From assembly GCA_031257795.1 (NCBI GenBank), contig JAIRNW010000055.1, positions 1 through 41,363 of the forward strand: a stretch of DNA of 41,363 nt, read 5' to 3'. Made by a program: the position numbers and the translations under genes. Positions 5,865-7,484 of this stretch are shown in pieces. A model generated the notes under the pieces. The model saw only the letters and a program-made list of their open reading frames with translations, searched no databases and was not told the DNA's origin. Positions within the stretch are counted from its first letter, which is position 1. The number at the start of each line of letters is the position of its first letter. This DNA is from Holosporales bacterium. GTDB lineage: Bacteria; Pseudomonadota; Alphaproteobacteria; BNTO01.

Positions 5865-7484
5865 CTAGCGCAAGGAGTCGTACACGTTATGCATATACTC
5901 GCTTATGCTGCCGGCCCCCATCCCAATTACGAACTCGCAAGTCTTTTGTGTTTCCGCGCGGGTCTCAATTTTAAGAATTTCTTTCAGCAATTTCGTCAGC
6001 TCTGCGACGTCAGCCACGTAATACGCCATGCACGCCCCACTTCCGCCGTATTTTGAATTAAACGCGCGAACAAAAGAGCTAGAGTCAATCCCGCTAATTT
6101 CCTGTTCCCCCGCGGTATACACCGGCATGGCAATCACAATGTCCGCCTCTGACAGCTCAAGCGCGAAGCGATCCCACAGGTCGGCAAAGCGCGTGTATCT
6201 GTGAGGCTGGAACACAACCACGATTCGCTCCGGCCCAGCCTGCTTCGCCGCCTCTATAACGGCCTTTATTTCGGCCGGATGATGGGCGTAATCGTCTATA
6301 AAAACGACTCCGTTCACATTACCCAAAAAAGAAAAACGCCGCTTGACCCCGGAAAAATTGGCTAAGGCGTCTTTTATCACGGCTTCATCGATCTCCAATT
6401 CCAAAGAAACGGCTACTCCTGCAAGCGCATTTAAAACATTGTGCGAGCCAAACATTGGCAGAAAAATGTCTTTTATAATCTTTGGAGTTGACGACCGAAG
6501 CCACTTCGTCTCGATAACTGCGTCAAACACTATTCCTTTATACCCAGTCCCCGAAAGTTTGTTGGTTCGTCGATCCGTTGCTTTGCTCGAGCAATACGTA
6601 GAGTACAGCTCTTCGCCTGTGCTACGCGTCTCCTGCCCACAATTCTTTTGGGAACTTGGTATATTGGAGTCCTTTGTAGCCTGGCTTCCGCCACATGCGC
6701 TCCACGCGACCTCGCTCCCAACAACACGCACATTCGTGCCTCTTACATCTGGAGAGCCGGTCAGCCCGTATGTTATAACACGCCTGTCTACTCCTTGCTC
6801 AATAATCTTTCGTACAGTTTCATCGTCAGAACACACAACGGAAACTCCGTAAAAAGGAACGTTGTGTATGAATTGGCGAAAGTGGGCTTCAACGTTTTCA
6901 TAGGTTTGGAAAAAGTTCATATGCTCGCGATCTATGTTCACCACCACATTGATTATCGATGGGATTTTTAGAAATGAACCATCAGACTCATCCGCCTCCA
7001 CCACAAACCACTCCCCTCCCCCAAGCTTGGCATTGGTTTGCAGTTTGTTAATAATGCCTCCATTAATAATTGTTGGCTCAAAGGCGGCCGCGTTCAGCAG
7101 AGAGGCAATGATCGAGGTCGTGGTGGTTTTCCCGTGCATTCCAGAAATCGCCACGGTTTTTTTCAGGCGGACGACCTCAGCCAACATCTCTCCGCGCGTT
7201 ATAATTGGGATTCGGGCCTCCCTCGCGGCCACAACCTCCGGGTTGTCGTCTGGGACTGCGGAGGAAATGACCAAGGCGTATGCTCCACGTATGTTTGTAG
7301 AGCTGTGGCCTTGGCAAATTGGGATGCCTATTTCTTTTAGGCGACGTATGTTTGAGTTTTCGACAAGGTCGCTACCTTTGATAAGGAAGCCTTTGTTGTG
7401 CAGGATCTCTGCGAGGCCGCTCATTCCAATGCCGCCGATTCCGGTGAAATGGATGAAGCTTTCTAGGTTTGGTAATATGTGCAT
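5865..7484 (-). CDS. murC: UDP-N-acetylmuramate--L-alanine ligase, carrying an in-frame repeat insertion
   Basis: GIGGIGMSGLAEIL and GMHGKTTTTS motifs, with Mur-ligase middle and C-terminal domains. 539 aa, longer than E. coli MurC (491 aa, recalled from memory). The excess maps to repeat 6540..6665. Confidence 0.95.
   Translation of the reverse strand: MHILPNLESFIHFTGIGGIGMSGLAEILHNKGFLIKGSDLVENSNIRRLKEIGIPICQGHSSTNIRGAYALVISSAVPDDNPEVVAAREARIPIITRGEMLAEVVRLKKTVAISGMHGKTTTTSIIASLLNAAAFEPTIINGGIINKLQTNAKLGGGEWFVVEADESDGSFLKIPSIINVVVNIDREHMNFFQTYENVEAHFRQFIHNVPFYGVSVVCSDDETVRKIIEQGVDRRVITYGLTGSPDVRGTNVRVVGSEVAWSACGGSQATKDSNIPSSQKNCGQETRSTGEELYSTYCSSKATDRRTNKLSGTGYKGIVFDAVIETKWLRSSTPKIIKDIFLPMFGSHNVLNALAGVAVSLELEIDEAVIKDALANFSGVKRRFSFLGNVNGVVFIDDYAHHPAEIKAVIEAAKQAGPERIVVVFQPHRYTRFADLWDRFALELSEADIVIAMPVYTAGEQEISGIDSSSFVRAFNSKYGGSGACMAYYVADVAELTKLLKEILKIETRAETQKTCEFVIGMGAGSISEYMHNVYDSLR
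6540..6665. repeat. family-B palindromic element inserted in frame inside murC
   Basis: Termini atacccagtccccgaaag ... cttttgggaacttggtat. The interior is closely similar to intergenic copy 11608..11726. Its translation ..GEELYSTYCSS.. parallels AAELYSTYCSC read from the intergenic copy. Confidence 0.85.

Follow-up and report, generated by a model that had tools for sequence, protein, structure and literature searches.

A palindromic repeat, probably of mobile origin, read in frame within murC of a Holosporales-like bacterium, and its apparent relation to the Rickettsia element RPE-1

The Rickettsia palindromic element (RPE) designated RPE-1 is said to have been described by Ogata et al. in 2000 (Science 290:347) and 2002 (Genome Res 12:808), and the Wolbachia palindromic elements (WPEs) reportedly by Ogata, Suhre and Claverie in 2005. 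This work concerns a palindromic repeat that lies in frame within murC, the gene for UDP-N-acetylmuramate--L-alanine ligase, in a 41,363-nt stretch of DNA (here called the window) deposited as Holosporales bacterium (GenBank assembly GCA_031257795.1, contig JAIRNW010000055.1). [quoted passage not shown] Summaries of the work of Ogata et al. (2000, 2002) describe RPEs in frame in many Rickettsia genes (PMC10969869, PMC3733652), and the genome of R. bellii carries 526 RPEs, 53 of which lie in genes (PMC1458961). A single conserved peptide is reported for each RPE (PMC10969869), and expression of RPE-decorated Rickettsia proteins in vivo is cited in PMC3733652 from Abergel et al. 2006, who reportedly also assayed the RPE-bearing guanylate kinase of Rickettsia for function. 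An earlier note on this DNA had named the Rickettsia RPEs as the precedent for such in-frame palindromic inserts, and rightly so, but the phenomenon is not confined to them. The Wolbachia genes addA, addB and priA hold WPE-like elements in their reading frames (PMC4224334), REPs within genes have been described (Di Nocera et al. 2013, PMC3733652), and in-gene copies are recorded for ERIC, for QMITE1 of Coxiella and for Anabaena MITEs (reviewed in PMC10969869).

The murC gene of the window (5865..7484, minus strand) is an intact open reading frame (ORF) of 539 aa that bears the insert. The palindrome, a copy of the repeat family here called family B, occupies 6539..6663 on the minus strand, which is the murC coding strand, and its 125 nt, with termini TATACCCAGTCCCCGAAAG ... 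CTTTTGGGAACTTGGTATA, take in the final base of codon 274, then 41 complete codons and the opening base of codon 316, being read as codons 275-315 (IPSSQ...GTGY). A palindromic segment of about 126 bp had been placed at 6540-6665 by the earlier note, and its boundaries are shifted here by no more than 2 nt; the peptide quoted for it, IPSSQKNCGQETRSTGEELYSTYCSSKATDRRTNKLSGTGY, is found in the murC ORF, which stays open across the element as had been claimed. Counted as 126 nt, or 42 codons, the segment is open in four of the six frames. As RNA it folds end to end (dG -51.6 kcal/mol, z -6.2, with none of 200 shuffled sequences folding as well) and as DNA it gives a z of -2.5, while the two flanking 125-nt segments of murC give z values of +0.1 and -1.5. 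The termini pair together in a 19-bp stem that contains two mismatches and one G-T wobble.

A strong RNA hairpin might by itself conceivably act as a processing or bypass signal, through which the segment would be removed before the mature protein is made, in the manner of an intron or an intein or by translational bypass. However, a search of the window against Rfam returned tRNA only and no intron RNA family, and in Pfam and NCBIfam MurC matches Mur-ligase families only, with no intein or Hint domain. Furthermore, the insert is stop-free and in frame, which removal would not need, and the other in-gene copies described below are likewise open in the frame of the host gene. Removal of the segment is therefore regarded as extremely unlikely.

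Comparison with homologues shows the insert to be lineage-specific. In an alignment of 99 MurC proteins, 65 residues of the window protein stand where the other 98 have 6-7, and alignment with E. coli MurC (2f00) pairs residues 1-258 and 342-502 with residues 21-269 and 286-452, with about 60 residues extra. The closest MurC proteins in a collection of 5.8 billion come from Holosporales metagenome-assembled genomes (MAGs; 50-54% identity, 467-476 aa), and none has the insert. The segment is absent from all homologues examined, and it has nucleotide similarity to the repeats of the window. The size of about 42 aa given there is right for the element, which contributes 41-42 aa, though not for the whole lineage-specific segment, which against the 98 homologues measures 58-59 aa. 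Lying just upstream of the element in the protein are about 17 further lineage-specific codons, EVAWSACGGSQATKDSN (6664..6716, minus strand), which show no excess folding (z +0.11) and no similarity to any of the window repeats by blastn or nhmmer.

A structural model places the insert in a turn of the protein. In an AlphaFold (AF2) model built on the 99-sequence alignment (pLDDT 87.3, pTM 0.87), the sole low-confidence stretch of MurC is residues 262-313 (pLDDT <50), between strands 247-255 and 317-324, which correspond, in published structures of MurC, to part of a small three-stranded antiparallel sheet in the central domain, away from the P-loop. The model matches the solved H. influenzae MurC 1p31 with a TM of 0.90 (Foldseek). 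The insert is accordingly predicted to sit in the turn that joins strands one and two of this sheet, in agreement with the surface-loop position foreseen for it, and in the model it adds a floppy surface loop while the remaining fold is intact.

These data also bear on whether murC is decaying or dispensable in a reduced symbiont genome, with the insertion as a step in its pseudogenisation. The context has a host-associated look, repeats are dense (6.6% of the window), and the usual murB-ddl neighbours, kept in relatives, have been lost, all of which would suit decay. Yet the ORF is complete and encodes all three Mur-ligase domains, N, M and C (Pfam), its score against the TIGR01082 murC equivalog model is well above the cutoff (472 bits against 335, NCBIfam), and each of the 80 columns invariant across the 99 MurC proteins is retained (80/80). 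The fold is confidently modelled outside the insert, and ftsA also lies in the window near murC. Decay of murC is, on this evidence, a very unlikely explanation.

Several further features of the gene may be recorded here. It is flanked by a secretin gene and dnaN (window 5865-8857). In four Holosporales relatives (L082, L083, L084 and L207) murC is followed by murB, with ddl also present in three of the four, and the usual murC-murB-ddl cluster is broken up in the window genome. Two antisense ORFs, 6343-6852 (+) and 6648-6971 (+), overlap murC and cross the element; they are unsupported as genes and could mislead annotation. A second lineage-specific insert, of nine residues (ETRAETQKT), lies near the MurC C-terminus at residues ~506-514 and carries no repeat signal.

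Dispersed repeats are a classic cause of mis-joins in assembly, and a repeat copy mis-joined into murC was an artefact that the earlier note had set down as grounds for rejecting its claim. A second contig of the same sequencing run (SRR14710907), separately assembled in Logan, carries the insert identically: over a length of 6,208 nt, both junctions included, it agrees in full with the window (100% identity), and it encodes the same 539-aa protein. The murC copy is unique in sequence, the nearest copy being 78% identical, and it therefore cannot be a collapsed copy of another locus. In addition, the murC frame is the same on both sides of the element, and independent contigs of other samples have similar in-frame inserts. 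A mis-assembly is thus barely conceivable, and is the least probable of the explanations weighed here.

The element in murC is one of many in the window. An nhmmer search seeded with the murC copy alone found 14 other loci, with E values down to 2.8e-18; these ranged from 1e-18 to 1e-8 for full-length family-B copies and from 2e-7 to 2e-4 for more distant ones, and the matches include 17299-17178 (E 2.8e-18), 11607-11728 (E 4.8e-15) and 33236-33113 (E 8.4e-14). Two iterations brought the number to ~25 loci, which make up the 6.6% of the 41-kb window mentioned above; 23 are intergenic or at the edges of mechanically called ORFs, and two are inside conserved genes, murC and thrS. Ten full-length copies can be aligned end to end, with consensus termini TACCCAGCCACAAAAAG / CTTTTTGTGGCTGGGTA. 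The terminal arms are 17-19 nt long (consensus TACCCAGCCACAAAAAG), copy lengths vary from 112 to 159 nt, and a central motif, GARCARTACGTNNAGTACAGCTC, occurs four times against zero expected.

The intergenic copy that had been compared with the murC insert, then given as 11608-11726, lies at 11609..11727 (+) between rnhB and a tRNA gene, is indeed homologous (the E of 4.8e-15 cited above), and forms a hairpin (dG -51.8, z -5.1); AAELYSTYCSC, previously quoted as its translation, is one of its frames. It begins one base after the rnhB stop codon. The copy closest to that of murC, also intergenic, is at 17173..17298 (minus), with 78% identity over 110 nt, a perfect 17-bp terminal stem and a z of -7.7, and a copy at 14846..14970 (minus; z -5.2) has matching changes in both terminal arms. 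The arms of these last two differ from each other at several positions, yet each copy has a perfect 17-bp stem. RNAalifold, applied to nine copies, missed the long hairpin because indels misalign the arms, and single-sequence folds and arm-by-arm comparison were used instead.

The remaining family-B copies are found at 33111..33235 (minus), upstream of an ABC-F gene; at 25485..25600 (minus), where the element occupies the entire spacer between a DUF4280 gene and a permease gene; at 26879..27000 (+), abutting the permease start codon; at 28803..28961 (+), a longer variant of 159 nt at the 5' end of the ORF of a major facilitator superfamily (MFS) transporter; and at 36088..36216 (+), overlapping the stop of ORF 35125-36096. 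An intermediate between family B and the related family A discussed below lies at 36769..36881 (+), downstream of a SpoU methylase gene. Most intergenic spacers hold an element, often 0-4 nt from start or stop codons, and at the 5' ends of dnaE, the MFS gene and the ABC-F gene they spuriously lengthen ORFs that were called mechanically.

The presence of the same element family in frame in several housekeeping genes is a direct observation. Within the window, thrS (31018-33027, +) has a 27-aa insert in its tRNA_SAD editing domain (31627..31707, +), which is absent from threonyl-tRNA synthetases (ThrRS) of the PDB and from the 15 closest ThrRS, and across which the Pfam tRNA_SAD match is stretched. 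The 3' 33 nt of this insert (31673-31705) match the terminal arm of the element, the match stopping at the insert boundary, and no hairpin is left; the insert is probably a truncated copy. A full-length copy is found in the metagenomic thrS of a related organism (contig L205, JGI 3300042643, Ga0466704_435094; thrS 253-2280), at 406-531 with an E of 5.6e-23 against a hidden Markov model (HMM) of the element. The encoded ThrRS is 63% identical to that of the window, and the copy, which lies in the N-terminal domain at another site and in another frame, adds exactly 41 aa. Its hairpin is strong (dG -59.2, z -7.8) and has three paired changes in the arms. The palindrome here measures 125 nt, against a net gain of 123 nt, lengths that, as far as sequence can tell, would fit a 121-nt element plus a duplicated TA, without proving the duplication.

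An exhaustive search with a profile of the element peptide among 1.84 billion representative proteins gave 18 matches, several of which place the peptide inside large proteins, namely AddA (P0242), DapE, a read-through of an aminopeptidase and Der, a LolA-like protein and one protein of 7,675 aa, all from sibling metagenomes (P0241-P0248). At the DNA level, full-length in-frame copies are present in dapE (L213:1983-2101) and, twice in tandem, in pepP (L214:766-884 and 886-1006), and the spacers of both contigs hold further copies, among them L214:1579-1682 (pepP/der). The pepP and der genes of L214 appear to be joined by a copy into one 791-aa ORF. All three forward frames of the element are found within proteins. 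The in-gene copies are all in the same orientation, but four of the seven came from a frame-specific protein query, and the three unbiased cases are too few to read a preference from.

Other searches and candidates set bounds on this list. A metagenome scan for the element core motif gave zero matches, and 120 metagenome loci with the arm motif were set aside as chance, since none fits the element HMM and the sole double match is an unrelated GGTTCGTGA simple repeat. The element-peptide profile found nothing in the index of 5.8 billion proteins, in which it also missed the window's own MurC, the word index being too coarse for a 42-aa query; the family-A peptide had no tblastn match in plasmids. 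An apparent FtsA insert was rejected because the added length comes from a spurious extension of the ORF at the N-terminus. RecR (11852-12553) has a 17-aa G/A-rich insert in its Toprim domain with no repeat signal. In the Holosporales MAG GCA_031258095.1 (L082), murC has a 53-aa in-frame insert (L082:3049-3207) in another loop and from an unrelated repeat family, the core of which (~95 nt) has three more copies within 14 kb (6255-6348, 18-119 and 11908-12003) and the fold of which does not clearly surpass that of shuffled sequence (z -1.4). The loci of P0012 (L083) and P0020 (L084), whose MurC inserts lie in the same loop, show no detectable repeats; the P0020 insert is low-complexity and S/Q-rich.

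How, then, might a 125-nt palindrome come to be read through in an essential gene? The proposed mechanism begins with insertion at a TA dinucleotide, in which an element proper of ~121 nt together with a duplicated TA would add 123 nt net, equal to 41 codons, and with such a gain a full-length copy would keep the frame automatically. Survival in essential genes would then depend on a sieve that demands a net length divisible by three, a read frame free of stops and a tolerant surface loop, and the 41-42 residues encoded in murC would protrude as a disordered or loosely ordered segment that affects catalysis little. The other nine full-length copies are open in 18 of their 54 frames, and in four of all ten the length is a multiple of three. 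The family consensus has stops in both of the frames read in murC and in the L205 thrS; the copies inside genes are consequently variants without stops that came through a sieve of selection, not instances of a coding module, and the idea that the element evolved to be compatible with coding is weakened by the same stops. The changes shared by both arms across copies would point to constraint on the element, through its mobility or its DNA or RNA structure, and not on the host protein. The mismatches in the murC stem may fit an older copy, no longer mobile, for which the constraint on the hairpin was lost once it was fixed in the gene. The insert would, in short, be selfish DNA tolerated in the small-population genome of a host-associated bacterium, and not an adaptation. 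The in-frame mechanism is an ordinary one for this class of element.

Alternatively, the insert may have been exapted, with selection favoring it as a new interaction surface or as an mRNA hairpin that tunes the translation or stability of murC. The hairpin is very stable even though the murC copy is, at 78%, among the more diverged ones, and inserts of this kind occur in several essential genes. Against exaptation, the sites, genes and frames (three are used) vary from case to case, as random insertion followed by a sieve would give, and the murC stem has decayed while intergenic copies keep perfect stems. The peptide has no homologue of known structure (a search of the 59-aa insert against PDB sequences found no match). 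Exaptation is considered unlikely, although less so than removal or decay of the gene.

Some observations weigh against an insertion of a mobile element now translated within MurC. The 17 codons upstream account for part of the 58-59 extra residues and are not explained by the element. A low pLDDT is what one expects wherever a segment lacks homologues in the alignment, and hence is no proof of disorder. The 41-kb window contains no transposase among its ORFs (Pfam), and translation of the insert is a point that we infer solely from the open frame. A near-identical strain with an empty murC site was not found: with the nearest MurC at 54% identity, the sequences do not allow the insertion to be polarised to the nucleotide, and a TA duplication at murC is putative. 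A search of species-representative genomes likewise gave only distant MurC proteins (<=49% identity) and no close relative of the source organism, which makes a comparison of filled and empty sites impossible. The copies do end TA...TA, but TA is self-complementary and so indistinguishable from part of the inverted repeat, and a target-site duplication cannot be read from them.

The earlier note had assigned the murC insert to a family different from the Rickettsia elements, and this holds in part. Membership of RPE1 was judged with the NCBIfam model TIGR01045 ("palindromic element RPE1 domain", curated cutoff 30 bits), which neither the murC copy nor the family-B consensus matches at E<=10 in any frame. 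The sister family A, however, passes the model: three translated copies score above the cutoff, at 18790..18942 (minus; translation NGPLSKPSKSEFWEGDTEHRSGAYLLVREHSSTGSTYPKTDFEGFERGPM; 41.2 bits, E 1.2e-10), at 34817..34969 (+; 35.2 bits) and at 17009..17128 (+; truncated at one end; 34.2 bits). A fourth, at 577..725 (minus), falls below it with 25.8 bits. A further copy at 30811..30958 (minus) is 97% complementary to an inverted copy at 34821-34968, and family A also includes 18938-19060. Family-A copies are up to 97-98% identical to one another, all are intergenic in the window, and they were probably active recently.

Families A and B share a common core of ~95 nt in alignment, to which the core of the copy at 18790..18942 belongs, and the murC copy matches family A in nhmmer with E values of 2e-7 to 1e-5. 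In the matching frame, the family-B consensus peptide is 55% identical to that of family A (BLASTP pairwise E 2e-10), and a family-B copy in P0241 reaches 24.4 bits on TIGR01045, while the murC insert is read in a different frame from the RPE1 peptide. Since A and B are homologous over the core and A passes the RPE1 model, the murC copy can be placed, through family A and on sequence grounds, as a diverged member of an RPE-1-related superfamily. A broader proposal is that the RPE-1 superfamily extends beyond Rickettsia into Holosporales-like host-associated alphaproteobacteria, by transfer or by ancient descent, and decorates MurC, ThrS (at two sites), DapE, PepP and AddA in three frames, partly because the insertion of 121 nt plus TA, or 123 nt, is frame-neutral. 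This proposal is tentative, and its chances fall somewhat short of even.

Compared with the described systems, the element is in several respects like RPE-1. Both are dispersed hairpin repeats of ~120-150 nt that lie in spacers and in frame in housekeeping genes, each palindrome of ~100-150 nt forming one long hairpin (the murC copy is 125 nt), and both add ~40-50 aa at positions compatible with the fold, a point that rests here on the AF2 prediction. Unlike RPE-1, the element is in a host that is not Rickettsia, and it uses all three frames of one strand, whereas each RPE has one conserved peptide (PMC10969869). The resemblance to WPEs is by description, both being stop-free in-frame palindromic segments in repair genes of an intracellular alphaproteobacterium, with AddA P0242 carrying the peptide of the window element; the host order differs. 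The bacterial MITEs (Correia/NEMIS, ERIC, QMITE1 and those of Anabaena) are similarly small and noncoding, with terminal inverted repeats, numerous copies at the edges of genes and now and then a fusion in frame with a host ORF, and the element has the terminal inverted repeats, a length within 70-300 bp and the lack of an ORF of its own that define a MITE, as well as ends compatible with a TA target duplication. In contrast to MITEs, its whole length is one long hairpin and not terminal inverted repeats around an unrelated core, and a cognate insertion sequence or transposase is not seen in the 41-kb window. REP/BIME repeats are also palindromic, abundant and sometimes translated in ORFs for DNA repair and tRNA synthetases, but REPs are stem-loops of 20-40 nt moved by RAYT, whereas this element is one hairpin of ~121-125 nt, and a RAYT (Y1 transposase) gene is absent from the window (Pfam).

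The nearest relatives of both MurC and ThrRS are proteins of Holosporales MAGs (50-63% identity), Ca. Paracaedibacter and Ca. Finniella, and by best matches only the uncultured host appears to be Holosporales-like. Holosporales have been argued to have taken up intracellular life independently of Rickettsiales (PMC6447387). The GC content varies from 42 to 52% along the window (~48% overall). At one end, a 1,335-aa ORF (37351-41358, minus) runs to within 5 nt of the window end and contains degenerate tandem repeats of 33 nt (11 aa) and 66 nt; its one Pfam match is weak and apolipoprotein-like, and its probable product is a large repetitive protein, either of the surface or an effector.

In-frame palindromic inserts as such are already known from Rickettsia, from Wolbachia and from REP and ERIC elements, and no new mechanism is revealed here. 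What is new is the Holosporales-like host, the measured link to RPE-1 and the decoration of many essential genes in several frames. A search of one literature collection found no paper joining Rickettsia palindromic elements with Holosporales-related terms, and a 2025 review of Holosporales mentions neither palindromes nor repetitive DNA, mobile genetic elements or insertion sequences, which suggests that the observation may be unreported for this order. The murC copy offers a clear case of such an insert, in an enzyme essential for the cell wall and in a bacterium most closely related to Holosporales. If the link to RPE-1 is true, these inserts would provide a second, independent natural experiment on the tolerance of proteins to random 41-residue insertions, and a marker of gene flow among intracellular lineages. 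They would also be a warning for annotation, because essential proteins are made longer, and ORFs merged or extended, by inserts of this kind in such metagenome-assembled genomes.

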